The notes under the pieces are model-generated. The model saw only the letters and a program-made list of their open reading frames with translations, did not search any database and was not told the origin of the DNA. From positions 1-36,850 of IMG/VR virus record IMGVR_UViG_2778261418_000018: DNA of 36,850 nucleotides. One strand, 5' to 3'. This stretch comes from a virus (Duplodnaviria > Heunggongvirae > Uroviricota > Caudoviricetes). Position numbers and translations under genes: made by a program. Shown in pieces: positions 152-36,850 of this stretch (position 1 is the first letter of the stretch; each line of letters starts with the position of its first letter).

Positions 152-227
<76 letters not shown>

Positions 228-281
228 GTTTAAAAGACATCGGCCTCAAGCGGATGTCTGGCTGAAAGGCCTGAAGAATTT

Positions 282-355
282 GGCGCGTTAACAAAGCGGT
301 TATGTAGCGGATTGCAAATCCGTCTAGTCCGGTTCGACTCCGGAACGCGCCTCCA
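282..355 (+). tRNA. cysT: tRNA-Cys, anticodon GCA
   Basis: GGCGCGTTAACAAAGCGGTTATGTAGCGGATTGCAAATCCG...GCGCCTCCA; anticodon loop ATTGCAAAT; second gene of the glyW-cysT-leuZ operon. Confidence 0.9.
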
Positions 356-367
356 CTTTCTTCCCGA

Positions 368-454
368 GCCCGGATGGTGGAATCGGTAGACACAAGGGAT
401 TTAAAATCCCTCGGCGTTCGCGCTGTGCGGGTTCAAGTCCCGCTCCGGGTACCA
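368..454 (+). tRNA. leuZ: tRNA-Leu, anticodon TAA (long variable arm)
   Basis: GCCCGGATGGTGGAATCGGTAGACACAAGGGATTTAAAATCCC...GGGTACCA; 87 nt with class II variable arm. Confidence 0.9.
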
Positions 455-1380: not shown

Positions 1381-1659
1381 TATTCATGTCTATGAGATAG
1401 GGTGCCTTATCGACCTTACCCTGGCAACCGATTGACGGGGGATTACTCCCCCGTCGCGGTTTCCTTACTGCTTACACTGTAAGAACGCCGCAAACTCCGC
1501 TCCCCAGAAGCTCATCCGTATTTCACACAGCGAACCGTGTAGCATCCAGATGATGAGGATTGCCGTCACGCAGAACGTGATGGCCATAAGCGATTTTTGC
1601 GACATAGCGCTTGCTCCTTTTTTGGGGAGGCGCTAACCTATCACTTGCTAAGGTTAGAT

Positions 1660-9660: not shown

Positions 9661-10638
9661 GTAAATCAGGCTTCTGGCGCATTACAGAAAAACCAGAACG
9701 GCGCAGATATTCCCGATAAAAAACTATTCCTGCGTAATATCGGCACAACAAATTCAACAACCATGTCTTTTAGTGGTGGTGCTGGATGGTTCAAACTGGC
9801 AACTGTAACAATGCCACAAGCCAGTTCCGTGGTTTACATAAGCCTGATTGGTGGCGCAGGGTATAACGTTGGCTCCCCGCAGCAAGCTGGCATATCTGAG
9901 CTGGTTCTGCGTGCAGGAAATGGGAATCCAAAAGGTATTACTGGTGCATTATGGCGACGGACCTCGGTTGGATTTACTAATTTTGCATGGGTGAATACAT
10001 CCGGTGATACCTATGACATTTATGTAGAAATAGGTAATTACGCCACAGGTGTTAATATCCAGTGGGATTATACAAAGGATGCAACTGTACAAATTCATAC
10101 ATCACCAACTTATACAGCGAATAAACCAACAGGCCTGACAGATGGAACTGTATATGTAATTTACAGTTCGCACATTAAACCGACTGCTGCTGATGTTGGG
10201 GCGTTGTCATTATCTGGAGGTCAATTGAATGGTGCACTGGGCATCGGAACATCCAGTGCTCTTGGCGGTAACTCGATTGTTTTGGGTGATAATGACACGG
10301 GCTTTAAACAAAATGGCGACGGTAATCTGGACGTTTATGCTAATAACGTCCATGTTATGCGCTTTGTCTCCGGCAGCATTCAAAGTAATAAAACCATAAA
10401 TATTACAGGGCGTGTTAACCCCTCGGATTACGGTAACTTTGATTCCCGCTATGTGAGAGATGTCCGACTTGGCACACGTGTTGTTCAGACTATGAAAAAA
10501 GGTGTGATGTATGAAAAATCAGGCCATGCAATTACGGGGCTTGGCATTATCGGCGAAGTTGATGGTGATGACCCCGCAGTATTCAGACCAATACAAAAAT
10601 ACATCAATGGCACATGGTATAACGTTGCGCAGGTGTAA
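9661..10638 (+). CDS. alternative tail-fibre C-terminal segment (Sv'-like), promoterless and start-less in this orientation
   Basis: Frame is open from the crossover site; first 18 codons (VNQASGALQKNQNGADIP) identical to the corresponding part of H; C-terminus ...RPIQKYINGTWYNVAQV parallels H ...RPIQYCINGTWYNAGSI. Confidence 0.7.
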   Translation, partial: VNQASGALQKNQNGADIPDKKLFLRNIGTTNSTTMSFSGGAGWFKLATVTMPQASSVVYISLIGGAGYNVGSPQQAGISELVLRAGNGNPKGITGALWRRTSVGFTNFAWVNTSGDTYDIYVEIGNYATGVNIQWDYTKDATVQIHTSPTYTANKPTGLTDGTVYVIYSSHIKPTAADVGALSLSGGQLNGALGIGTSSALGGNSIVLGDNDTGFKQNGDGNLDVYANNVHVMRFVSGSIQSNKTINITGRVNPSDYGNFDSRYVRDVRLGTRVVQTMKKGVMYEKSGHAITGLGIIGEVDGDDPAVFRPIQKYINGTWYNVAQV

Positions 10639-11730: not shown

Positions 11731-13833
11731 TTAAATACTCCCCGCGTTATACCACGTCCCATTAATGCAATACTGAATTGGCCTTGCCTGAGTTGTATCA
11801 ATTAATGCATCACGGTTTCCGTTAACTGAACCCGTAACGACATAACCTGACCTGTCAGACCAGCCGGGGCCATTCCATGTCTGAACAGATGACAGACCGC
11901 CAAGGCGAATACCTGTAATAAACCTTGAGTTACATTCTGCCTGCGTGTATGCACCAACATCTCCCGCAGAGGGTTTGCGGGTCGTGGTGTAAAACTCTGA
12001 CCAGTCAGCCTCAAATCCATAACCATCACGCGCTGAACGATAAAAAATACCGCCGTTCCTGTAATTCACGCGGAACTGTACAGCAGGGCAGCTCCCCGTA
12101 TTCATATTGAAGTGGAGGATTAATGTCGATGCGCCACCAATGTTTGCGTTATAGACCCCGCTATTCCAGTTCCAGCCAACAGCTTTATCATTTCCGACAG
12201 TGCTTCCTGTTTGCCCTAAAGCAAATGCAGGTTGTTGATTTTTCGTGTTGTAGTCTCGTCGCCAGCCAGGAGCGTAAGCATCACCATGATTAATATAAGT
12301 GAATTGAGCGTTATTAATTCCGCCACCGCTGGACGTGCTCGGCGTAGTAACGCGTATGGTCATTGCGCCGCGAGTGCCAATAACTTCCACCACAGCACCT
12401 GCAAGACAAATATTTCCGCAACCTGTATCTGTAATGACCTTATTATTTGCATAAGCCCATGAGCCTTTGCACATCCAGTAAGGATGGTTAAATGCTCCCT
12501 GACTCTCCAGCCACGAAATAAATTGCGCGGTTGTCCAGACCTGACTATCGCCACCAATATTCAGCCATGCGCTATATGCGCGGCAGGCCCCAATATTTTT
12601 GGTGAAGGTATCTTTTCCCGGAATATCTGCGCCGTTCTGGTTTTTCTGTAATGCGCCAGAAGCCTGATTTACCGTTTCCTGTAAACCGAGATATTCGATA
12701 ACAGCGGCAACGGTCGATTTCGCAAGAATATCCCGCCCGACTTTTGTCAGGGTTGCCAGGCTGGCGACATCATTCCCCGTAAAATACGGAAACTTGTCTG
12801 CCGCAGTAGCAAGCCCGGCCAGCGCCGTCAGGGTGGCATCTTTCGGTTGCTTACCCGCAAGCGCGTTAGTCATGGTGGTCGCAAAATTCGGGTCGTTTCC
12901 CAGCGCCGCCGCTAACTCGTTCAGCGTATTCAGTGCGTCAGGTGACGAATCTACAAGGGCGGCAATCGCGGCCATCACATAAGCCGTGCTTGCGATCTGA
13001 GTATTATTAGTACCTTTTGGCGCAGTTGGCGTTGTTGGCGTTCCAGTCAGCGCCGGGCTGTTTAATGGGGCTTTCTTGTTCGTTTCATCCATTACCGCCT
13101 TAACCGCTTTTGGTGTCGCTGCCAGCGTTTCAGACGTGCTGTTGGTTGCATTGCTGAGCTGGACTATCCCTTTTCGTGCCGTCGTGGCGTCCTGAGCGGT
13201 ATATTTTCCGTTAGCCAGGTCATACGCGGCCTTAACCGCTTTCGGCGTTGCGGCCAGCGTTTCAGAATCGCTGTTAGTGGCGCTACTGAGTTGAACAAAG
13301 CCTTTTGCGGTCAGCGAGGCATCCGGGTGACGTCGTGACTGTTCATGCTCTTTCAGTTTGTCATCCACGTAATCCACTGTGGCCATCACCATGGTGTTAT
13401 CCACGGTAAGCGCCACGGTGGCAGTGCTGGATACGGTCAGAATGGTGCGAAATGTTTGTGCACGTCCGGACCCTTCGGCAACGGTTGGCTTGTAACTTTC
13501 GGCAGTATTGCCCACCGCGATTAAATCGCCGTGCTCATCAAATACACCAATTTCCCGGATCCAGAATCCGCCCGTTTCAGGAGGAATAACCAGCTCTGCA
13601 ATAATGCGGTTCTGATGTGTTGCGTCCAGGATGACGCGATTAACAGTATGTCGCCACACCTCATGCACCAGACGGGTCTGCTTACTGTCAGGTGTGGGCA
13701 ATGTACCGCCACCGTCGCCCACGGCCATATGAGTCAGGCGGACAGGCTTACCATCTGGCGCGGCTGCCTGCGCTAATTTTTTTGCACCCGTATCGGTGAT
13801 AACGGTTTTAAATTTTCGTGTTGTGGTACTCAT
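11731..13833 (-). CDS. H: tail fibre protein H (constant N-terminus plus currently joined variable C-terminus)
   Basis: 700 aa; tandem SETLAATPKAVKA repeats; crossover site inside the coding sequence at 12676..12701. Confidence 0.85.
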   Translation of the reverse strand: MSTTTRKFKTVITDTGAKKLAQAAAPDGKPVRLTHMAVGDGGGTLPTPDSKQTRLVHEVWRHTVNRVILDATHQNRIIAELVIPPETGGFWIREIGVFDEHGDLIAVGNTAESYKPTVAEGSGRAQTFRTILTVSSTATVALTVDNTMVMATVDYVDDKLKEHEQSRRHPDASLTAKGFVQLSSATNSDSETLAATPKAVKAAYDLANGKYTAQDATTARKGIVQLSNATNSTSETLAATPKAVKAVMDETNKKAPLNSPALTGTPTTPTAPKGTNNTQIASTAYVMAAIAALVDSSPDALNTLNELAAALGNDPNFATTMTNALAGKQPKDATLTALAGLATAADKFPYFTGNDVASLATLTKVGRDILAKSTVAAVIEYLGLQETVNQASGALQKNQNGADIPGKDTFTKNIGACRAYSAWLNIGGDSQVWTTAQFISWLESQGAFNHPYWMCKGSWAYANNKVITDTGCGNICLAGAVVEVIGTRGAMTIRVTTPSTSSGGGINNAQFTYINHGDAYAPGWRRDYNTKNQQPAFALGQTGSTVGNDKAVGWNWNSGVYNANIGGASTLILHFNMNTGSCPAVQFRVNYRNGGIFYRSARDGYGFEADWSEFYTTTRKPSAGDVGAYTQAECNSRFITGIRLGGLSSVQTWNGPGWSDRSGYVVTGSVNGNRDALIDTTQARPIQYCINGTWYNAGSI
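12676..12701. other. gix/hix-like recombination crossover site (right, inverted)
   Basis: Plus strand TTCCTGTAAACCGAGATATTCGATAA, reverse complement TTATCGAATATCTCGGTTTACAGGAA; inner arm and ~55 bp of adjoining sequence identical to the left copy. Confidence 0.75.
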
Positions 13834-17279: not shown

Positions 17280-17556
17280 GGTTGTTATCCTCGTTGTTCA
17301 GTCGTTGCAGACTGCGCTGTTCCAGTAATTCAATGGCCCGTTTATCAGCGTTACAGGTTTCCAGTGCATCCAGAAGGCGGTCGCCCCATATACCGAGATT
17401 TCCCCATGTGGGAGTGTCAGGGAAGGGGGGAGGTGTTACCGGTATGGTCAGCGTCTGCGGTATAAGCCGGACTGACGGCGCTGGCAGTGGCGCGTTCTGC
17501 GTGCCTGCGCAACCTGTCAGTAAAACGAGCGTCAGGCAAAGCGTGGGCGCATTCAT
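17266..17556 (-). CDS. o-spanin (LysC/Rz1-like lipoprotein) embedded out of frame in the i-spanin gene
   Basis: MNAPTLCLTLVLLTGCAG lipobox followed by Pro-rich segment; start taken at internal ATG. Confidence 0.5.
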   Translation of the reverse strand: MNAPTLCLTLVLLTGCAGTQNAPLPAPSVRLIPQTLTIPVTPPPFPDTPTWGNLGIWGDRLLDALETCNADKRAIELLEQRSLQRLNNEDNNHAEN

Positions 17557-17824
17557 CTTTTGCAATATCGTTGCGTAGCTGTTCACGTCTGGCCTCTCCG
17601 TCCTGATTTCTCTGTTGATTTTCCACGCGGAGTTGCGCCAGCACCTGCTGCATATCCTGTACCCCGGTGCTGATGATATTCAGGGTGTCGACGGTGCTTT
17701 TCAGGGCGCTGGCCTGCGCTTCGTTTCTGGCGTTCTCCCGGCCCAGCGACCACGACAGACGCATGGATGTTCCCCATCCGGCAATCAGAAGGAAAGCGAC
17801 GCCAAGCGTGGGCCAGAGCTTCAT
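17417..17824 (-). CDS. i-spanin (LysB/Rz-like)
   Basis: MKLWPTLGVAFLLIAGWG N-terminal TM then coiled-coil; ATGA overlap with endolysin stop. Confidence 0.6.
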   Translation of the reverse strand: MKLWPTLGVAFLLIAGWGTSMRLSWSLGRENARNEAQASALKSTVDTLNIISTGVQDMQQVLAQLRVENQQRNQDGEARREQLRNDIAKDECAHALPDARFTDRLRRHAERATASAVSPAYTADADHTGNTSPLP

Positions 17825-18213
17825 GCCGGATAGGCTCCGTGTGGCAACTGAAAATGCGGTCCGTCTTTCAGGGTCTTCCAGTCGCCGCCCCATTCCACCG
17901 GAATATTCAGCTCCCGGCTGGCCTGTCTGAATGCTGCTGCGATTTTTTCGTACAGCGGCCATTCCCATGACACCTGGCTGCCGATATAAGCCACAACATC
18001 CACGGCATGCCCCGTAAGGTGGCGGCTGTTCATGGTCTGGCTCTTACCTGTGGCCACAAGTTGCTTCTGGCGGTAACGGCTGCGCAACCCTTCGGTGATA
18101 CCAAAATCCACTTCCGAGATTTCCAGTGCCCGTCGGGTCACTTTCACCAGGTCAGGATTTACGCCCTGCAAATTCTTTTCGCTCCGGCTGCTGAATTTAA
18201 ATGTGTTGCTCAT
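17821..18213 (-). CDS. endolysin, peptidase M15-type (L-Ala-D-Glu endopeptidase fold)
   Basis: 130 aa with H...D...H zinc-peptidase spacing (SRHLTGHAVDV ... GPHFQL) typical of VanY/M15 phage endolysins. Confidence 0.65.
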   Translation of the reverse strand: MSNTFKFSSRSEKNLQGVNPDLVKVTRRALEISEVDFGITEGLRSRYRQKQLVATGKSQTMNSRHLTGHAVDVVAYIGSQVSWEWPLYEKIAAAFRQASRELNIPVEWGGDWKTLKDGPHFQLPHGAYPA

Positions 18214-18533
18214 TCGTCCTTCTCCTTCACCCTGCGATTAAAGGCCGCAATAACCTTGTCGCGTGCTTTCTCTGCGCCCATAAAACCGATTGATGCGCCG
18301 ATAAACGTCACGGCATCTTCAGGAAAACCGAAGAAGCGCAACGACCCGGCCACGGCCATGGCAAGAACGCCGCACGCCAGCGATCCCGTTACGGTCTGAA
18401 CCAGTGTTCGTCCGTCATAAAGACTCATCAGCGCGGAAATGCTGACCGCCGCGCCTACTGCATACACCGTTGGCAGGTGGTCAAAGAGCCACGCAATAAC
18501 CTGCTCTGTGATCCCTGTTTGAATGGTGCTCAC
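18210..18533 (-). CDS. holin
   Basis: GTG start with RBS GGGGGGAG; 107 aa with hydrophobic segments; position before endolysin. Confidence 0.55.
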   Translation of the reverse strand: MSTIQTGITEQVIAWLFDHLPTVYAVGAAVSISALMSLYDGRTLVQTVTGSLACGVLAMAVAGSLRFFGFPEDAVTFIGASIGFMGAEKARDKVIAAFNRRVKEKDE

Positions 18534-29085: not shown

Positions 29086-31869
29086 TTATTTTTTCTTCTC
29101 GCTATTGCCTTTGTCCTGCAACAGACCCGCCTTGTGACGTGCGCGTTCAGTGGTTTCATTGATTCTCTGTGCGTGCTCTGCGTCACGGATGGCGCGCAGC
29201 ATGTCAGAAAGCACGGTAACGGGGGGGTTCATGGTGTTCTGGTCCTGCTGAAGTGTGGATACCAGGCGTGCGGCGGCTTCGGGGTCTGATGCCCCCAGCT
29301 GTTCCAGATAGCTGGCGACCGGGTTATGGCGGATCTCCGTGCTGCTTACGCCGTGATTACGGCTCAGGCGCTGCCAGAGCTGCGTGATTCGGCTGTCCGG
29401 GCGGGTATCCGGTTTGCGTACAATTTCAAATCCCTGCGGTGCAATGATGCTGCCGTCAACGTACAGGCTGCCGCCCCGTAACAGGTGCTGCATCTGCTGT
29501 TCACCGATATGCAGGCCGAGAGATTCAGCAGATTCCCGCCATTCTTTAGCGAGTAATTCGTGGCTATCAGGCAAAGGCCGCTGCTGTTTGCGGCTCTGTG
29601 TCCAGCTCTGCATTTCATCACTGCTGTTTTTTGCCTGTTTGTCACGCAGCGAACGCATCAGCGCCCGGCGTTCGTGCCGTTTCAGTGAGCGCATCCATTC
29701 ATCCACATCAACGCCGTCAGGAAGCTGCGGCCACGGTGCTGGCCGTTCTTCCGGCTGTTCTGTCCCGTTGTTGTCCGTTTCCTGTACACGGGGACAGTTA
29801 TTGCCACGAGTCCAAGGGGCGGCAGGGCCGCCCTGAAGGTCAAAACCATTTTCGCGGGCGCTGTCTTCCGCTTCCGGTTTACGTCTTACCAGCTTCCAGT
29901 TATCCGGATGTGTGCACACACGGGAAGACTCCCCGATGAGTGGTGACCAGATCCCGTAAATCTGTACGCTCTGTTCGCCGTAATCGTTCAGCTCATCTGC
30001 GAGGTCGTAGGCGGTGCGAATCAGGTAGTCTTTGCGTGGAACAAGTACGCCGCCCTGTTTTTCAATGTAGGAGGCAAAACACCCGGCATCAGCGGCAGCG
30101 AGCACTGCATCCATTGCGTCATCCTTCAGCCGTTGCGGGCCTTCCGGGTTGCGTGCCATCTGGCTGGCAAGGCGGCGCAGTTCACGCCACACCTGACGGG
30201 AGGGGATGCCAAAGAACTGGAACTGGCGGACCCGGTGAAGGCGCGCCCAGCCGATGGCGCGCTCCACGCTCTCGGCCATTGATTTTCCGGTTTCGTGGTC
30301 AACGCGTGGCTTGCCCGTTTTCGGGTCGATACCATCCACGGCGCGGCTGTCCAGGTTCTTTCCGATGTAGGTGGCGATGTAGCTGGTTGGCGTGCCTTTT
30401 GAGCCGTCGACGTACTCCGCTTTAAAACGCGGAGTTATGTCATCGCCCAGCTCGTGGCGGTCTTCCTGAATGGCAATATCGCAGACGTGGGACACGATGG
30501 TTTCAATCTCGTCCGGATGTGCAAAGACCATCATATGCCAGTGCACAGTGCCGTCATGGTGAGGCTCCACCGTGCGGATGCCATACCAGCGAAGACCGTC
30601 GCGGTTCAGTTTTTTGCGGACCGCCGCAAAAAACGTGTTAACCAGGTAATCGCTGGAGTCGCGCATGGTGGCCCCGTTCCATTTGGGATTCGGATGACCG
30701 TTCTCCGTTGTTGCGTGGTATTTTGACGGGCAGGTGACAGTCAGAAACACCGCTCTGTCGCCACGGGCTTCGGCCTGAAGTTCCAGCCCCTTCATGGTGG
30801 CCATCATTTCTGCCTTACGGTGAACCGGGTTACTTACTCCCGCGTAATACACTGTATCGAGATCAATCGTGAACCCGTCTTCGTTTTCCAGCATGAAACT
30901 TTTCAGGAAATCGCGTGTTTTCTCGCGCTGTGCGCGAAACTCGCTTAACGCGTCCTGGCTCAGATAGGGCGATGTTTTTCTGGAAACCAGACAGGCGGCG
31001 CGGAGTTGTTCTTCTCTCCACTTGCAACGTAACAGCCACAGTTTGCGTTTCCACCATTCTGCACAGGTCAGGCGAAGGATTGCGCCCGGCAGCAGCTCCG
31101 TGTCCGGTTCGTTCCTCCGGTCTTTGTCTGTTGTCAGTGCGTCATAATGCGGAGGCATGGCGTGCAGGTGTAACGCCATGCGGGCCAGCATCTGATACGC
31201 CTTCAGCGTTACATCCATGGTCAGCTCGCCATCAGTCGCGCCAAAGCCATCGCAGAGTTTTTCGAAGGTGCTGCTGAACATCGCCGCCGTCATGGTGGCC
31301 AGCGTCTGTATCTGGTGTTTGTTGAGCTGCGGCAGGTAAAGCAAATCATCCAGGCGTTCGCGTCCGGCAAGGGAGCGATAACCCGGTGTCAGCCAGCGGT
31401 GGTCGGTGCGGTCCAGACGTTCGAATATTTTGCGCAGGGTTCCGCGCGCGTAGCGTTCAGCCTGCCAGCTCTTTTTGCCTTTCTGACGATCGGCTTCCTG
31501 CTTCTTGCGCAGAAAAGAGAGGTGGCGGCTCAGAGGTTCACGCAGATAAACGGGAAGCACCTTCAGTGTGGCAAAAGCACGGGCCACCGGGTCTTGTTCT
31601 GTTGCCTGACGCTTGCTGATGATGCTTTGTGTCAGCTTTTCACGCTGTCCGGCTTCCTCAAGGGATGCCATGAGTTTTTTACCCACGGTGGATTGTGCGA
31701 AAAAGGCTTCCTCCTTCGCTTCCTGTTCTTCCAGGGCCTTTTTGTCTGCTTCAAGGTAGTAACGGATGGCGCGTTGCATGTCGGTTTCAGTTTCCTGCCT
31801 GCGCTCCGTAAATCTGGCCGGATCAATGGCTGGCCGTGGTTCATTCCAGCTCCATGCAAACTCACTCAT
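29086..31869 (-). CDS. A: replication initiation endonuclease A (rolling-circle)
   Basis: Large basic protein in the P2 A position; start at ATG 31869 overlapping upstream stop (ATGA). Confidence 0.8.
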   Translation of the reverse strand: MSEFAWSWNEPRPAIDPARFTERRQETETDMQRAIRYYLEADKKALEEQEAKEEAFFAQSTVGKKLMASLEEAGQREKLTQSIISKRQATEQDPVARAFATLKVLPVYLREPLSRHLSFLRKKQEADRQKGKKSWQAERYARGTLRKIFERLDRTDHRWLTPGYRSLAGRERLDDLLYLPQLNKHQIQTLATMTAAMFSSTFEKLCDGFGATDGELTMDVTLKAYQMLARMALHLHAMPPHYDALTTDKDRRNEPDTELLPGAILRLTCAEWWKRKLWLLRCKWREEQLRAACLVSRKTSPYLSQDALSEFRAQREKTRDFLKSFMLENEDGFTIDLDTVYYAGVSNPVHRKAEMMATMKGLELQAEARGDRAVFLTVTCPSKYHATTENGHPNPKWNGATMRDSSDYLVNTFFAAVRKKLNRDGLRWYGIRTVEPHHDGTVHWHMMVFAHPDEIETIVSHVCDIAIQEDRHELGDDITPRFKAEYVDGSKGTPTSYIATYIGKNLDSRAVDGIDPKTGKPRVDHETGKSMAESVERAIGWARLHRVRQFQFFGIPSRQVWRELRRLASQMARNPEGPQRLKDDAMDAVLAAADAGCFASYIEKQGGVLVPRKDYLIRTAYDLADELNDYGEQSVQIYGIWSPLIGESSRVCTHPDNWKLVRRKPEAEDSARENGFDLQGGPAAPWTRGNNCPRVQETDNNGTEQPEERPAPWPQLPDGVDVDEWMRSLKRHERRALMRSLRDKQAKNSSDEMQSWTQSRKQQRPLPDSHELLAKEWRESAESLGLHIGEQQMQHLLRGGSLYVDGSIIAPQGFEIVRKPDTRPDSRITQLWQRLSRNHGVSSTEIRHNPVASYLEQLGASDPEAAARLVSTLQQDQNTMNPPVTVLSDMLRAIRDAEHAQRINETTERARHKAGLLQDKGNSEKKK

Positions 31870-32255
31870 GGCTGGTATCCCGTCACGTGCTGCCACTCCA
31901 GCGAGAAGAGGGTGGAAAGGCGGTTAAATTCAGCGGTGTATTCACTCAGCGAGGCACACCCGCCAGCAGTGCGATGCGCCAGCATTGCCGCAAATATGGA
32001 GGCCGGGGAGTCGTAATACGCCAGCAGTGATTCGCCGTGTGGTGTCAGGCAGTGCAACGCCAGCCCATGTGGTGTGAAGTCCACGCGGTAGCAGTCGTCT
32101 ACTGTGAAATAAAGGGTGTCTGCATTCTCCGGTTTTGTGGTGCGTGCTCTGTTGTCACGACCACGGATGTAGAGATCAAATAATCCCTGAAGAACGGGAG
32201 CCATACGGGTGTCCTGTGTGCGCACCCATCTTGTGAAGTCATGAGCGTCAATCAT
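31866..32255 (-). CDS. hypothetical early protein (129 aa)
   Basis: ORF translationally coupled to A. Confidence 0.5.
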   Translation of the reverse strand: MIDAHDFTRWVRTQDTRMAPVLQGLFDLYIRGRDNRARTTKPENADTLYFTVDDCYRVDFTPHGLALHCLTPHGESLLAYYDSPASIFAAMLAHRTAGGCASLSEYTAEFNRLSTLFSLEWQHVTGYQP

Positions 32256-32363
32256 GCTGCAATTCTCTCTACTAAGGATGTGCGAAGGCTTCCTGCCAAA
32301 AAACTCAGAAGCGGTCGGTTACAGGAATTGGCGTTCTACGAGTAGTTATTGCTGGCTTGAGGT

Positions 32364-32582
32364 TCATTTCTGTTTAATTCCGTGCATGCTGTAGAAGAAA
32401 TCAAAAGTGTTATCTATGCGTATCATGAGCTCACGCTGCATCGCTTCTGGTGTTTCTGGTTCACCTGGTGAGCCAACGCCCGCGAAGAAATCACCGATCT
32501 CGCTTTGAATAAGTACCTTTAGCGTTGCTGAGGAATTCATGCGTGTGCGGTGATGTCTGCGAGTGATTCTTCTACTGCTCAT
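32364..32582 (-). CDS. hypothetical early protein (72 aa, basic N-terminus)
   Basis: ATGA overlap with upstream ORF. Confidence 0.45.
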   Translation of the reverse strand: MSSRRITRRHHRTRMNSSATLKVLIQSEIGDFFAGVGSPGEPETPEAMQRELMIRIDNTFDFFYSMHGIKQK

Positions 32583-32782
32583 TTGCGTGGATCCTGTACC
32601 TGTCGGATAAGATTCACCCGCGCCACATTAGTGGCGCAGAAGTAAGTGCCGTCAGTGAGATAGATGTGGTGTGCATCCTTTTCTGAGCGGTGTTTGTCGA
32701 TTGTGGTAATCAGGCGTTCGTCGACTTCGTATTCACGTCCTCTGGAGGTGAAACGAACGACAGGAAAATGCTTAATTGCCAT
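32579..32782 (-). CDS. hypothetical early protein (67 aa)
   Basis: Strong RBS AAGGAGG before ATG. Confidence 0.55.
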   Translation of the reverse strand: MAIKHFPVVRFTSRGREYEVDERLITTIDKHRSEKDAHHIYLTDGTYFCATNVARVNLIRQVQDPRK

Positions 32783-32889
32783 TACGCCTCCTTGGGTGTG
32801 CGAATACCTCTGCGAATGCAGATTGTGTTCACATTTTCTTATTTAAGATGGGGTTTTATTTACGCTGTTATTCGCCAGTGAAAAAGCGT

Positions 32890-32982
32890 TCAATCTTTTT
32901 TTACTGAATTAATAATTCGCATAATACCAATTGCACAGACCACCGAAATAATCAGAACAATCCATGATATAAATATACTCAT
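32890..32982 (-). CDS. 30-aa hydrophobic membrane peptide MSIFISWIVLIISVVCAIGIMRIINSVKKD (not in the ORF track)
   Basis: ATG overlaps stop of upstream 80-aa ORF (ATGA); single predicted TM helix with basic C-terminal tail. Confidence 0.5.
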   Translation of the reverse strand: MSIFISWIVLIISVVCAIGIMRIINSVKKD

Positions 32983-33221
32983 GCGATATTTCCCAGTTTG
33001 TACGGCTCAATATGCTCCCCGCATTCTGCGGCGCAGATAAGCTCAGAAAGTTCGTTAAGTGCATCCAGATCGTCAGCGTAAAAAGCCACGTCATACAGAC
33101 TCCGGATAGCCCTGGTCAATGAGTCACGGGCTGCACGTTCTGAATGAGCGCCTGATGCGCTTAAGCGAAAATAAAAACGCTCAAGTGCTTTGTTGATGAG
33201 AGTTTTATATTCTTTATCCAT
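32979..33221 (-). CDS. hypothetical early protein (80 aa)
   Basis: ORF in early operon. Confidence 0.5.
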   Translation of the reverse strand: MDKEYKTLINKALERFYFRLSASGAHSERAARDSLTRAIRSLYDVAFYADDLDALNELSELICAAECGEHIEPYKLGNIA

Positions 33222-33232
33222 CGCAACACCCT

Positions 33233-33511
33233 TTAATCTGCTTTCTGAATTTCAGCTTCTGAATCCATGCAGATAATTTCGATATAGGGTTCATCGCCAT
33301 TAACCTGACGAGATTTTTCGGCTTCGCTAATTATTTCGCGAATGGTCTGGTACGGAAGCTCTACAGTCAGGCGTGTACCGTTCAGATAAACGTAGGTAGC
33401 TGCGTTTTTTTCAGATGGAACTACTCCGTCAATAGCTGATGCGCGTAATAACAGTTCACCGCGAAAATCAATAAAGCGGATAAATACACCTTGTGCATGG
33501 TCTTTAGTCAT
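33233..33511 (-). CDS. hypothetical early protein (92 aa)
   Basis: Start at ATG 33511 (MTKDHAQG) with RBS AGGTG. Confidence 0.5.
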   Translation of the reverse strand: MTKDHAQGVFIRFIDFRGELLLRASAIDGVVPSEKNAATYVYLNGTRLTVELPYQTIREIISEAEKSRQVNGDEPYIEIICMDSEAEIQKAD

Positions 33512-33521
33512 AAAGCACCTG

Positions 33522-33872
33522 TTATAAATCAGCCTGTTTAATAAAACTTTGCCCACGAAGCAGACGATCGACTGAGCGCAGTGCTTCGTACAATGTGAAA
33601 TCCTGCCCGAACTGATTATCGCCGCTGCTTAATGCAAAAATGCGGTTTCCGGTAAACGGATTGCGTGGGCATCTGTGAACCACGATTCCAGCTTTCTCAA
33701 TCAGCCAGGTGTGTTCGCCGATTTGTGTTACTGCGTGCCCATCTGGTGTTGCGTGCGTCTCGTTCAGGTTATAGCGACTGTTACTACGTGATGCACTGGT
33801 AGCGACGTGGTGTACATGGCGTTCTACGCCATTACGAAATTTGAAGTATGGATTATTAGCATTTTTTTTCAT
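33522..33872 (-). CDS. hypothetical early protein (116 aa)
   Basis: ORF in early operon. Confidence 0.5.
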   Translation of the reverse strand: MKKNANNPYFKFRNGVERHVHHVATSASRSNSRYNLNETHATPDGHAVTQIGEHTWLIEKAGIVVHRCPRNPFTGNRIFALSSGDNQFGQDFTLYEALRSVDRLLRGQSFIKQADL

Positions 33873-33893
33873 GATGATGCTCTGTTCATTGTT

Positions 33894-34097
33894 TTAGCTG
33901 TTAGCCAAAGCGTCTTTTAACATCGCCACAAGGTTTACTTCAGGCTTTTCCATTTTGGCGCGTTTGGGGCGGATAATAATTCGACCGTCAGCCAACATCT
34001 TTTTGCATGTATTAAAAGGGATACCTGTTATCTCTGCATATTTCTGCAGGGATACATAGGGGGCATTCACATGGATATTGATGGTTATACCTGACAT
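33894..34097 (-). CDS. Cox/Apl-like small HTH DNA-binding protein
   Basis: APYVSLQKYAEITGIPFNTCKKMLADGRI resembles P2 Cox IPYQEFAKLIGKSTGAVRRMIDKGKL (as recalled). Confidence 0.55.
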   Translation of the reverse strand: MSGITINIHVNAPYVSLQKYAEITGIPFNTCKKMLADGRIIIRPKRAKMEKPEVNLVAMLKDALANS

Positions 34098-34113
34098 CCC
34101 ACTAGCCTCGTGA

Positions 34114-34320
34114 TCAGGAAGATTTGTTTTGTTCTTTCTGGGTTAGCTCTAGGCCGCGAAGGAAGATCATGCGCGCCATGTTAGAGGATGAGCGTTGTTC
34201 TTTAGCTGCCATTTCATCAATGACGGCTCGCTCCTCGAGTGACAGCCGAAGTGCCAGTCTTGGACCTGTGGCGGTGTTACGCGGAATGCGTGATCTGGTA
34301 TCGTGAAGAACTTGTTTCAT
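34114..34320 (-). CDS. ribbon-helix-helix type small regulator, first gene of the lytic (early) operon
   Basis: LRLSLEERAVIDEMAAKEQRSSSNMARMIFLRGL fits beta-strand/helix/helix RHH pattern. Confidence 0.5.
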   Translation of the reverse strand: MKQVLHDTRSRIPRNTATGPRLALRLSLEERAVIDEMAAKEQRSSSNMARMIFLRGLELTQKEQNKSS

Positions 34321-34395
34321 AGTGGTATATTGTGATCATCTAATAGCTCGTGAAATCATTTTGGTATCAAAAAAGATACCTGTCAAGGTTTTTGT
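34321..34395. promoter_or_regulatory. immunity switch region with divergent promoters and operator dyads
   Basis: 75-bp spacer between divergent early and repressor genes; dyad GGTATC-AAAAAA-GATACC at 34363..34380, TGATCA palindrome at 34332..34337. Confidence 0.55.
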
Positions 34396-34800
34396 ATGAA
34401 AAATGATATTGGTCAGCGGTTGCGTGAGGAAAGGGAAAGATTGGGACTTAGTCAAGTTGCTATGAGCGACATTGGTGGAGTCAAAAAGCTAACTCAGCTT
34501 AGATATGAGAAAGGAGATAGCTTTCCTGATGCTGCGTATTTGGCAGCGCTGTCTCGTTTTGGCCTTGATGTTCAGTATGTTGTGTTGGGAATTCACTCAC
34601 CTGAAACTTATAACGATGATGAGCAGGAGCTGATTACTCGCTTTCGAGCAGCTTCGTTAGATGTGAAAAACGCCGTGATCGGGGCTTTAAAAGGTGCGAT
34701 CAGTGAAAAGGAAACTCAGCCATCAGGACGTGAGTTAAATATTTCTGGTGGTAATAACCGTATCGCTGGTCGTGACTATAACGAAACTAAGGGTAGGTGA
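34396..34800 (+). CDS. immunity repressor, XRE/CI-type HTH
   Basis: IGQRLREERERLGLSQVAMSDIGGVKKLTQLRYEKG HTH; position upstream of int as for P2 C. Confidence 0.8.
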   Translation: MKNDIGQRLREERERLGLSQVAMSDIGGVKKLTQLRYEKGDSFPDAAYLAALSRFGLDVQYVVLGIHSPETYNDDEQELITRFRAASLDVKNAVIGALKGAISEKETQPSGRELNISGGNNRIAGRDYNETKGR

Positions 34801-34815
34801 TAGTAGGGAGGTGAC

Positions 34816-35466
34816 ATGGCCGTCAACTCAAACGGTTCAAACAATCGCGTTGCTGGACGTGATTTTCACGAAAAGAATATTCAGATAGCGCGATATGATG
34901 GTTCTCATACCGTCAATATCGCAATCCCTTCGAATAATGATGATGACGATCGCCCTTTGCTTAAGGCTCAGCGTAAGGAGTTAAATAGCTTGGTTGCTGC
35001 TATTGCAGAAGCTAGCAATACTGAAGCGTTTATTATTTGGCAAAAAGTACATGCGGAGATTGGTGTAGCTGGTATTGATGATATGGCAGTAAATCAATAT
35101 AAAACAGCGGAGAGTTTTCTGCATGCAATGCTTGAGCGATGTAAAGATCATGATGCCTGTAAGACTCTTGTAAGTTTATTACTACGTAACAGTGAAGACT
35201 GTGGACTTCGACAAAAACTTCTGCGGTATTGCCATATCAATTTCGGTACAGGACGTTTAAACGATCTTACTCGTTCTCAGTTACAGTCTGCATTGTCGTG
35301 GTTAGAGCAACAATCGGTATCAAGCCATACAGAGAATTCGACCTTACCAGAAGTCCGACTTCGTGCTTCAGAATTAATCCGACTTTATCCAAAAGAAATA
35401 ATATTCTTTATCTGCGTAGGGGTTTTGGTAGGCGGTGCCATTTCTAGGGTGTTTTTTAATTTGTAA
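34816..35466 (+). CDS. membrane-anchored protein of unknown function (C-terminal TM helix), lysogenic-operon cargo
   Basis: 216 aa; C-terminus EIIFFICVGVLVGGAISRVFF; N-terminus repeats a motif from the repressor C-terminus. Confidence 0.6.
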   Translation: MAVNSNGSNNRVAGRDFHEKNIQIARYDGSHTVNIAIPSNNDDDDRPLLKAQRKELNSLVAAIAEASNTEAFIIWQKVHAEIGVAGIDDMAVNQYKTAESFLHAMLERCKDHDACKTLVSLLLRNSEDCGLRQKLLRYCHINFGTGRLNDLTRSQLQSALSWLEQQSVSSHTENSTLPEVRLRASELIRLYPKEIIFFICVGVLVGGAISRVFFNL

Positions 35467-35495
35467 TCTTACTTGAGCTAAATTGAGGTAATGAT

Positions 35496-35843
35496 ATGAA
35501 AGTAAAAAAGGTTCAACTATTAGTTACTTTTTTATCTATGTTTTCTTTTTCCGCCGTCGCAATGCCTTTTAAAAATATTGAACGTGAGAGTTTCAATGGG
35601 GTATGGCCATTTAATACTGATGAGGTTCAATTACAGTGTCTTGATGGTAATCCTTATGTGATGAATTTTGACGATAATAAGTTATATGCGCTTACAGGTT
35701 TGGCTCGAATAAAAGGTAAAACATTTGGTGCGTTACCGTTAGATAACAATAATCCATTTTGGCTAGATAATGATGCCGCCCCAGGGTTAAAAAAGAGTCT
35801 GGGGGATGTCACTAAGGCTGCATTTGATTTATGTGATAAGTAA
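35496..35843 (+). CDS. secreted/periplasmic small protein, YebY (DUF2511)-like
   Basis: Signal peptide MKVKKVQLLVTFLSMFSFSAVA; two Cys; W-FN--EV-L-C--GN-YV pattern resembles YebY as recalled. Confidence 0.55.
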   Translation: MKVKKVQLLVTFLSMFSFSAVAMPFKNIERESFNGVWPFNTDEVQLQCLDGNPYVMNFDDNKLYALTGLARIKGKTFGALPLDNNNPFWLDNDAAPGLKKSLGDVTKAAFDLCDK

Positions 35844-35848
35844 CTAAA

Positions 35849-36850
35849 ATGTCGGTTCGTAAGATTCCATCAGGTAAATGGCTTTGCGAATGTTATCCCT
35901 ACGGGGCATCGGGAAAACGCATTCGTAAACAGTTTGCGACAAAAAGTGAGGCGCTCTCTTATGAGCGCCGTTTAATGAATAGTAGAGTTGGAGAGGAGTT
36001 TCAAGATGGTTCTGGTCCTCGTCTTTCTGAGTTGATTGCTCGTTGGTTTGAGATGTACGGTAAAACCTTGTCCTCTGGTGCAGAGCGCAAAGTCAAACTT
36101 GAGGCGATTTGTTCCAGGCTGGGAGATCCATTTGCTTCTCAGTTTGACAAAAATATGTTTGCTACTTATAGGGAAAGAAGGCTATCAGGAGAATGGAATC
36201 CCAAGGGGAAGAAAAAACTTAGTGAAGCAACCGTTAATCGCGAGCAGTCATATCTACATGCTGTTTTTGCCGAACTGAAGCGACTTGGGGAGTGGTCTGG
36301 TGAAAACCCCCTGACTGGTATTCGCAAGTTTCGTGAGGAAGAAAAGGAACTGGCGTTTCTGTATGTAGATGAGATTGAACGCCTTCTGATTGCGTGTGAT
36401 GAGTCACGGAATAAAGATTTGGGGGTTGTTGTCCGTATTGGGCTTGCGACTGGTGCTCGGTGGAGTGAAGCAGAAGGATTAAAGCAATCTCAAGTACTGC
36501 CCGGTCGAATCACATTTGTTAAAACTAAAGGAAAGAAGAACCGCACTGTACCGATTTCACCTCAATTGCAGGCTATGCTTCCTAAAAAACGAGGAGCGCT
36601 ATTTTCACCATGTTATGAGGCTTTTGACGCTGCAATTAAGAGAGCGAAGATCGAGCTTCCTGATGGGCAATTAACTCATGTGCTACGTCACACTTTTGCC
36701 AGTCATTTTATGATGCGGGGCGGAAATATTCTTGTGTTGCAAAAAATACTGGGGCATAGCGATATAAAAATGACTATGCGTTATGCGCATTTTGCTCCAG
36801 GTCATTTAGAGGCTGCTGTTGAATTGAACCCTTTTGACAATAGAGGGTAA
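35849..36850 (+). CDS. int: tyrosine integrase (P2 Int family)
   Basis: 333 aa; catalytic residues in ATGARWSE (Arg), HVLRHTFAS (His-x-x-Arg), MRYAH (Tyr); stop codon at window end. Confidence 0.9.
   Translation: MSVRKIPSGKWLCECYPYGASGKRIRKQFATKSEALSYERRLMNSRVGEEFQDGSGPRLSELIARWFEMYGKTLSSGAERKVKLEAICSRLGDPFASQFDKNMFATYRERRLSGEWNPKGKKKLSEATVNREQSYLHAVFAELKRLGEWSGENPLTGIRKFREEEKELAFLYVDEIERLLIACDESRNKDLGVVVRIGLATGARWSEAEGLKQSQVLPGRITFVKTKGKKNRTVPISPQLQAMLPKKRGALFSPCYEAFDAAIKRAKIELPDGQLTHVLRHTFASHFMMRGGNILVLQKILGHSDIKMTMRYAHFAPGHLEAAVELNPFDNRG

Follow-up and report, generated by a model that had tools for sequence, protein, structure and literature searches.

A tail-truncated allele of a probable single-helix membrane peptide gene overlapping DUF4754 in the early operon of a P88-like prophage

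Type I toxins combine a small hydrophobic peptide of less than 60 aa with an antitoxin RNA and with a toxin transcript that is independent and regulated through its leader, and holins are marked by their place in a lysis cassette with late expression and by similarity to a holin family. Among the small membrane proteins that have been characterised, the mode of action, where known, is a helix–helix contact with a larger membrane protein (PMC12648545). With respect to recoding, the heptamer A_AAA_AAG is the most shift-prone one in Escherichia coli, and ribosomes that have shifted in dnaX reach a stop one codon further on (PMC5009743, PMC1851650); transcriptional slippage, in turn, has been described on runs of 9 (PMC5009743). 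Closest to the locus considered here is gp07 of phage P88 (YP_009113050.1), which is found at the same position, is annotated as a 'membrane protein' of 37 aa and has the sequence MSIFISWLVLIISVACAIGIMRIIHSVKKIERFFTGE; a 'putative membrane protein' is likewise annotated at the equivalent position of phage 569R5. The literature on DUF4754, on the peptide sequence and on the P88 early genes yielded nothing functional.

The window, i.e., the whole stretch of 36,850 nucleotides that was analysed, comes from a P88-like, P2-family prophage of E. coli (genus Xuanwuvirus, Peduoviridae), its closest records being P88-like prophages and phages. Over 4 kb, its early region matches the E. coli assembly GCA_002521215.1 at 100% identity, and NZ_CP058874 is collinear with the window only over 29129–36850, at 98.7% identity. 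Of 5426 complete E. coli genomes, 1367 (roughly a quarter) contain the 1.1-kb region around the peptide gene, which is also found in 14 phage records, among them P88, 569R5, Chuche and the Citrobacter phage phiSM. On the minus strand, 3' of the sigma-70-like promoter match (Table 1), follow an Arc-like ORF, a Cox-like ORF, DUF4761, a PHROG 3800 protein, DUF4754 and the peptide gene, after which come three further small genes and then the replication endonuclease gpA; the operon faces a cI-like repressor gene (34396–34800) and the integrase. This cluster is an early lytic operon, and the early-operon location that the original prediction gave to the peptide stands, the gene lying between the cox-like gene and replication gene A. 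The product of the DUF4754 gene immediately upstream is modelled with three helices at a pLDDT of 87.8, and a Foldseek search of this model against the PDB gave a best E-value of 1.7, returning generic helical bundles and designed proteins.

Table 1. Features bearing on the peptide gene, with positions counted from the first letter of the window
Feature	Position	Strand	Remarks
Peptide gene, truncated allele (the P88 gp07-type prophage membrane peptide has 37 aa)	32890..32982	-	30 codons plus stop, MSIFISWIVLIISVVCAIGIMRIINSVKKD
DUF4754 gene, 80 aa	32979..33221	-	Pfam E 7.5e-54; TGA overlaps the peptide ATG (32979-32982); predicted three-helix bundle
Weak Shine-Dalgarno-like GGGA (GGGGA in most relatives)	32991..32994	-	8 nt 5' of the ATG, within the last DUF4754 codons
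A7 homopolymer (A6 in relatives)	32896..32902	-	Extra A turns ...SVKK-IERFFTGE-stop into ...SVKK-D-stop
Tail-coding remnant (…ERFFTGE) and ancestral stop TAA 32870-32868	32868..32889	-	Out of frame in the window allele
T5 run, second homopolymer indel hotspot	32881..32885	-	One-base indels give the 45-aa tail variant; predicted to pair with the A-run
Spacer to the next gene (32579-32782), 'empty' state of a variable cargo slot	32783..32867	-	Conserved hairpin 32809-32822
Sigma-70-like match TTGACA-17-CAAAAT, presumed early promoter	34358..34386	-	Only match in 32300-34500; faces the early operon
hok/gef homologue	1468-1605		P88 core-gene comparison; 31 kb from the peptide
Holin-endolysin-LysB cassette, homologues of P88 gp30-32	17420-18533		P88 core-gene comparison

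The minus-strand ATG of the peptide frame (32982–32980) and the TGA stop (32981–32979) of the 80-codon ORF 32979..33221 overlap as ATGA, such that the last two bases of the ATG are common to the TGA; the strand reads …GGGAAATATCGCATGAGTATA… across the overlap and the peptide gene. The frame closes at a TGA (32892–32890) and its product is MSIFISWIVLIISVVCAIGIMRIINSVKKD. Re-reading the sequence thus bears out what had been described at the start, namely the ATGA overlap, a frame of 30 aa, one hydrophobic helix and a basic tail. A lone 30-codon ORF carries no weight by itself, since 101 ORFs of at least 20 aa occur within 6 kb. As for initiation, the anti-SD duplex of the peptide gene amounts to −4.2 kcal/mol and resembles that of most genes of the same operon. 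A 61-aa ORF in an alternative frame (32909–33094) was also considered as a gene and rejected, its pN/pS being about 1 and its database occurrences being confined to frameshift fusions.

The weight that the frame lacks by itself is supplied by its relatives, which were gathered as two locus sets, i.e., 144 loci fetched via the DUF4754 neighbour and 80 fetched of the 271 viral contigs found via the peptide. In every locus of the DUF4754-seeded set, the stop of DUF4754 overlaps with a start codon (143 ATGA and one GTGA) and an open frame follows, with products of 37 aa at 133 loci, 45 aa at five, 30 aa at four and 41 aa at two; in the peptide-seeded scan, the ATGA overlap is kept in 80/80 fetched loci. 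Conservation of the small ORF in related prophages had been proposed as a check, and the overlapping start is indeed kept in all 224 fetched loci; the overlap with DUF4754 in every one of them also sustains the suggested pairing with the upstream 80-aa protein. When counted as 157 distinct sequence contexts, the product lengths are 37 aa (133 contexts), 41 aa (13), 45 aa (5), 30 aa (5) and 25 aa (1). Across 59 distinct 37-codon sequences, the peptide frame has a pN/pS of 0.26, and the remaining two frames have 1.18 and 1.00. Thus, both the conserved overlapping start and a pN/pS that is low only in the peptide frame argue for a real gene over a chance ORF.

The peptide-seeded scan further revealed a more distant clade with products of 41 aa (ending in …IE[SL][LF]FTG[ED][EK]R[RH]K), which comes from E. 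coli and is represented on thousands of contigs. Comparisons with this clade give a pS of about 0.5 and a pN of 0.13–0.22. Its upstream DUF4754 proteins are 29–40% identical to that of the window and still above the Pfam threshold (30–58 bits), and its peptides are 62–68% identical. The gene pair and its overlap are conserved over the full breadth of DUF4754 that was found, with the peptide as the slower-evolving partner. In terms of the original prediction, its core, i.e., a genuine gene for a small single-pass membrane protein, is supported by purifying selection, the kept start and the predicted helix.

This gene is also better represented in public records than had been supposed. It was described as unlisted, which is correct with respect to an ORF track with a 60-aa cut-off but does not extend to the databases, where it is annotated as P88 gp07, in UniRef and as a PGAP pseudogene. 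In a tblastn comparison, gp07 aligns with the window over residues 1–29 at 89.7% identity. Exact-sequence look-up recovered several 37-aa variants, each on at least 1000 contigs, from Escherichia, Shigella, Salmonella and E. albertii, named either 'hypothetical protein' or, in UniRef, 'Prophage membrane protein'; the window sequence itself, when repaired to 37 aa, exists verbatim on at least 1000 contigs. A phmmer search with the 30-aa peptide against 1.84 billion representative proteins gave five matches, all of this family and 83–100% identical, with no remote homologue among them, and Pfam, PHROGs, NCBIfam and PADLOC hold no family for it, returning only sub-cut-off noise (TatA at 15 bits, PET117 at 12 bits). 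Function is hence not transferable by homology, because distant relatives are not detectable. The peptide belongs to a narrow, abundant family of 37–45-aa peptides annotated as P88 gp07 'membrane protein', in which the window copy is placed by its transmembrane (TM) and juxtamembrane similarity and the DUF4754 overlap, and from which it departs by lacking the 37–45-aa product with the I30–E31 tail (IERFF… / IESLF…).

This departure concerns the size of the peptide. The 30 aa had been taken as its full length, but the normal product has 37 aa and ends in …SVKKIERFFTGE, and the window copy is a frameshift-truncated allele. In the alignment, the window has GTAAAAAAAGATTGA where relatives have GTAAAAAAGATTGAACGC…GAATAA, and the ORF of the relatives runs eight codons further, to the TAA at 32870–32868. 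PGAP labels the same allele, at the equivalent coordinates 32868..32982 in the 98.7%-identical prophage, as a 'frameshifted' pseudogene. Frameshifts in relatives had been named as a finding that would speak against the gene, and a frameshift does turn up, but the other way round, in the window copy and not in the relatives, which are intact.

Indels in homopolymers are among the classic errors of sequencing. The extra A lies at just such a site, and many of the database 'fusion' proteins around the locus are obvious draft-assembly frameshift artefacts, so that an error of assembly or sequencing, or an open frame that arose by chance, has to be weighed. However, gene calls on at least 24 contigs give the identical 30-aa product, and these contigs come from unrelated ENA, Logan and NCBI assemblies, i.e., the same A7 was obtained in unrelated projects and by different assemblers, and since these assemblies are independent the allele is not a read error. 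Furthermore, the other P88 core genes with a homologue in the window are each full-length in one frame, with the exception of the tail-fibre gene gp39, and thus the prophage is neither decayed nor error-ridden; a chance ORF, for its part, is excluded by the conservation and pN/pS given above. An artefact of either kind is accordingly very hard to credit. The prophages carrying A7 differ by up to 3.8% over 4 kb, and one carrier (L233) shows three synonymous and no non-synonymous differences in the 30 codons. The same change is also present on a second peptide background (L134/L135), i.e., it arose on at least two backgrounds. The exact local sequence of the window is found in 1 of 5426 complete E. 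coli genomes. The A7 allele is genuine, heritable and rare.

That it is genuine leaves room for the reading implied by PGAP, in which the additional A destroyed function and the 30-codon ORF is the inert remnant of a dead pseudogene. The database label on the same allele is one point on its side, and the tail itself is another: codons 30–37 have a pN/pS of 0.25, with I30 and E31 invariant across both clades, and the eight residues lost from the window copy form a segment that is under purifying selection and not neutral. Its rarity points the same way, with about 24 contigs as against thousands for the intact forms and the single complete genome mentioned above. Nevertheless, the frameshift spares the TM helix as well as the basic residues next to it, and the rest of the prophage is intact. 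The persistence of the allele across diverged prophages, the purely synonymous changes of L233 and the origin on more than one peptide background also argue against an inert remnant. Finally, indels in the T-run generate a 45-aa variant (…IERFSLVNNDTNKTSN), in which the end of the tail is also replaced and which is nevertheless common, being found on more than 1000 contigs; at least the distal tail is hence replaceable. With indels in both the A-run and the T-run altering it, the distal tail is naturally polymorphic via two homopolymer hotspots, and the 30-aa form is the most severe tail variant. A dead pseudogene is thus possible but on balance doubtful, and we consider it probable that the window holds a real early-operon gene of a P88-like prophage, tail-truncated here by one added A, which encodes a single-helix membrane peptide. 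As the truncated allele is without a segment that is under purifying selection, the window copy may be partly or wholly inactive.

The position of the frameshift raises a further reading, which concerns the intact relatives. Their codons GTA AAA AAG contain the dnaX shift site A_AAA_AAG as an in-frame heptamer, and a −1 slip on the wild-type GTA AAA AAG ATT GA leads to GAT TGA and hence to …KKD-stop, which is exactly the 30-aa product of the window. On this basis, one might envisage programmed isoform switching, in which the −1 shift would provide the 30-aa form alongside the 37-aa form, the A7 allele would hard-wire the short one and the A- and T-runs would serve as mutational switches. The two runs would then amount to a recoding and contingency locus that flips lineages among tails of 30, 37 and 45 aa, with a fixed 30-aa fraction being made from the wild-type gene. 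In agreement with this, the heptamer is that most prone to shifting in E. coli and occurs in 109 of the 157 distinct contexts, synonymous diversity is unusually low in codons 22–29 (pS 0.069, as against 0.17–0.34 elsewhere), and frameshift alleles recur at exactly two homopolymers that are predicted to pair mutually. However, folding and sequence inspection recovered no stimulators of the dnaX type, i.e., neither an SD-like element about 10 nt upstream, where the sequence 5' of the heptamer, CGAATTATT(C/A)ATTCAGT, has no SD-like run, nor a conserved stem-loop 5–8 nt downstream, the consensus fold having the A-run paired with the T-run and no stem after a spacer. The heptamer is also interrupted (G_AAA_AAG) in 28 contexts, and the 13 contexts of the 41-aa clade all lack both the heptamer and the −1 TGA. 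The prevalence of the heptamer is explicable by common descent and Lys codon choice, and runs of 5–7 bases are short for transcriptional slippage. Both the programmed switch and its contingency-locus extension are therefore improbable, even though some unprogrammed slippage at the heptamer is to be expected.

A different kind of function had been proposed at the outset, namely that of a type I toxin- or holin-like killer, a small pore-forming peptide that arrests growth or depolarises the membrane. Toxicity on over-expression is common for hydrophobic peptides. The size, the one TM helix and the charged C-terminus fit generic type I toxins and class III holins (PMC12648545). However, the gene lacks both a promoter and a leader of its own, and its start codon falls within the stop of the cistron before it in a polycistronic operon. 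On the opposite strand, a consensus scan of 32300–34500, which a weak promoter could escape, found no plus-strand promoter-like site from which an antisense RNA might start, and Rfam gave no match at E ≤ 1 in 31800–34600, only three tRNAs being recovered window-wide at gathering score. Nothing matched in the Pfam, PHROGs, NCBIfam and PADLOC profiles, be it a toxin, a holin or a defence component. An early-operon placement is moreover the wrong one for a holin, and the prophage already possesses both a hok/gef homologue and a holin-endolysin-LysB cassette elsewhere (Table 1). Of the features by which type I toxins are recognised, the locus thus shows the small hydrophobic peptide of less than 60 aa, with neither the RNA antitoxin nor the independent leadered transcript; of those of holins, it shows neither the location in a lysis cassette with late expression nor similarity to a holin family. 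Judged from its sequence, the peptide qualifies neither as a type I toxin nor as a holin on any criterion that can be tested, and its architecture is that of an ordinary early-operon gene. The killer function is accordingly quite unlikely, and this part of the original prediction is not upheld.

What the peptide might do instead can be approached from its layout. Residues 3–21, 19 in all, average 2.84 on the Kyte-Doolittle scale and are flanked by an uncharged MS at the N-terminal side and by RIINSVKKD, with three basic residues, at the C-terminal side; under the positive-inside rule, this distribution of charges predicts a single-pass N-out/C-in topology. The TM helix has a conserved face of small residues, S13, A17 and G19 (S13xxxA17/G19), and the tail of the 37-aa form is basic and amphipathic (hydrophobic moment 0.72). 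A lipoprotein or secreted peptide was considered and rejected, given the uncharged MS end without a basic n-region and the lack of a lipobox L-[AS]-[GA]-C or an AxA site; the residues around Cys16 are S-V-(V/A)-C, and the 41-aa clade has Met in place of this Cys.

On these predictions, the peptide most likely serves as a single-pass N-out/C-in peptide of the inner membrane that is produced along with DUF4754. In the model that we favour, the early promoter would transcribe the peptide gene such that it is made only in lytic growth or induction, and ribosomes that have just finished DUF4754 would translate it by termination-reinitiation. The peptide would then insert N-out/C-in into the inner membrane, where its TM helix would contact a conserved membrane partner and its cytoplasmic tail would provide an accessory contact. 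Its action, as far as the architecture goes, would be like that of small regulatory membrane proteins and not that of a pore-forming killer. The 30-aa product of the window should still insert into the membrane, with an activity that is possibly partial or lost.

With respect to the partner, DUF4754 and the peptide diverge in a decoupled manner, e.g., the DUF4754 of one locus (L140) has fallen to 44% identity while the peptide is nearly unchanged, and such decoupled rates argue against tight co-evolution within a physical complex of the two. Together with the greater conservation of the peptide, this suggests that the constraint on it would come from a target in the host, with co-evolution with DUF4754 being less likely. 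On the other side of the gene, a pairing of the peptide's 3' end with the Shine-Dalgarno sequence of the next gene was also tried and rejected: it appears only in the single-sequence MFE structure, and the alignment consensus is without it and shows no covariation. The two genes are moreover separated by cargo in about 60% of relatives. Because the consensus drops the pairing and because of this intervening cargo, a coupling of the leader-peptide style was rejected.

In light of this, the 'unlisted toxin-like peptide' is to be corrected to a truncated allele of an already annotated prophage membrane peptide, one that exceeds its neighbours in conservation, has a translational link to DUF4754 throughout and occurs in about one in four complete E. 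coli genomes. If the peptide were to modulate a membrane machine of the host (e.g., division, transport or energy supply), or to anchor DUF4754 to the membrane, it would give a compact means of studying how the phage takes over. The alleles of different tail length, which recur, are ready natural variants for asking which part of the peptide matters.

The locus may finally be set beside the known systems. With the type I toxins (Hok/Gef, TisB, Ldr, Ibs, ShoB, ZorO), the peptide has in common its size, hydrophobic helix and charged end, but it differs in that no antisense RNA and no promoter or structured leader of its own were found, and in being embedded in an operon by a stop/start overlap. 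The wild-type relatives share with the E. coli dnaX cassette the same in-frame heptamer of the X_XXY_YYZ form, in the same frame and with a −1 stop one codon later; unlike dnaX, they are without the upstream SD-like and downstream stem-loop stimulators, and neither site nor −1 stop is conserved family-wide. The window itself is one step further removed, with A_AAA_AAA in place of the heptamer and the short form in the zero frame. The MgrB-type small inner-membrane proteins of enterobacteria resemble the peptide in having less than 50 aa and one TM helix and in being often missed by ORF-length cut-offs (PMC12648545), but there is no sequence relationship and the peptide is phage-encoded in a lytic operon, such that the resemblance is one of kind only. 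Nearest by far stand P88 gp07 and its Xuanwuvirus orthologs. The window copy differs from gp07 in having A7 and not A6 and in ending as …KKD-stop at 30 aa without the conserved tail IERFFTGE; it shares with them the place directly 3' of DUF4754, the ATGA overlap and the early operon, and with the gp07 family both the TM helix and the basic motif RII(H/N)SVKK next to it.

The spacer directly downstream of the small gene, the truncated allele of the P88 gp07-type 37-aa membrane peptide, behaves as a variable cargo slot, which is empty in the window and in about 40% of the related loci compared, and is occupied in the remaining relatives by 265–755 bp carrying a same-strand ORF of 103–138 aa. These ORFs fall into at least three unrelated families. 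Within the spacer lies a conserved hairpin, which shows one compensatory change among relatives (U-A to C-G) and has no U-run after it on the coding strand.

At the 3' end of the small gene, the A-run (A7 here, with the extra A of the window's allele, and A6 in relatives) and the T-run are predicted to pair in a second hairpin, UCAGU-AAAAAAG…CUUUUUC-ACUGG, and codons 22–29 of the peptide display unusually low synonymous diversity (pS 0.069). An alternative-frame ORF across this gene and the upstream 80-aa DUF4754 gene was rejected as a gene, being devoid of coding signal (pN/pS ~1); the database "DUF4754" proteins of 103–128 aa are frameshift-artefact fusions running into its frame.

Features of the window considered here
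Feature	Coordinates	Strand	Remarks
Three tRNA genes	152-451	+	left edge, adjoining prophage end opposite integrase
hok/gef-family ORF	1468-1605	-	95.7% identity to P88 gp52 "MokW-like host killing"
P88 tail-fibre gp39 matches	10408-10635; 12460-13833	+; -	two pieces, opposite strands
Variable cargo slot	32783-32889		directly 3' of small gene; compare 2233-2760 of related locus L003
Conserved hairpin	32809-32822		UCUGC-AUUC-GCAGA
A-run and T-run	32881-32902	-	two homopolymer indel hotspots, mutually complementary
61-aa alternative-frame ORF	32909-33094	-	overlaps DUF4754 and peptide
68-aa ORF	34114-34320	-	PHROG 3431 "Arc-like repressor", E 1e-28
45-aa ORF	34169-34306	+	PGAP call in 98.7%-identical STLEFF_47 prophage
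216-aa ORF	34816-35466	+	downstream of cI-like repressor; Pfam Flk_N

In the repressor region, the annotations conflict over a 68-aa minus-strand ORF versus a 45-aa plus-strand one, and it is probably the former that is real and heads the early operon, i.e., the minus-strand lytic genes. The 216-aa ORF, which ends in a hydrophobic C-terminus (…FFICVGVLVGGAISRVFFNL) and is inherited together with the A7 allele lineage, may encode a tail-anchored protein of the lysogeny operon.

The tRNA region is probably chromosomal flank or attachment region. Close to the ogr end of the prophage lies the hok/gef-family ORF, the real type I toxin family member within the window; Rfam returned no Sok-type RNA at the gathering threshold. 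The split match to P88 gp39 hints that the tail-fibre tip is invertible or has been exchanged, because in P88 a DNA invertase is found near the tail-fibre gene.
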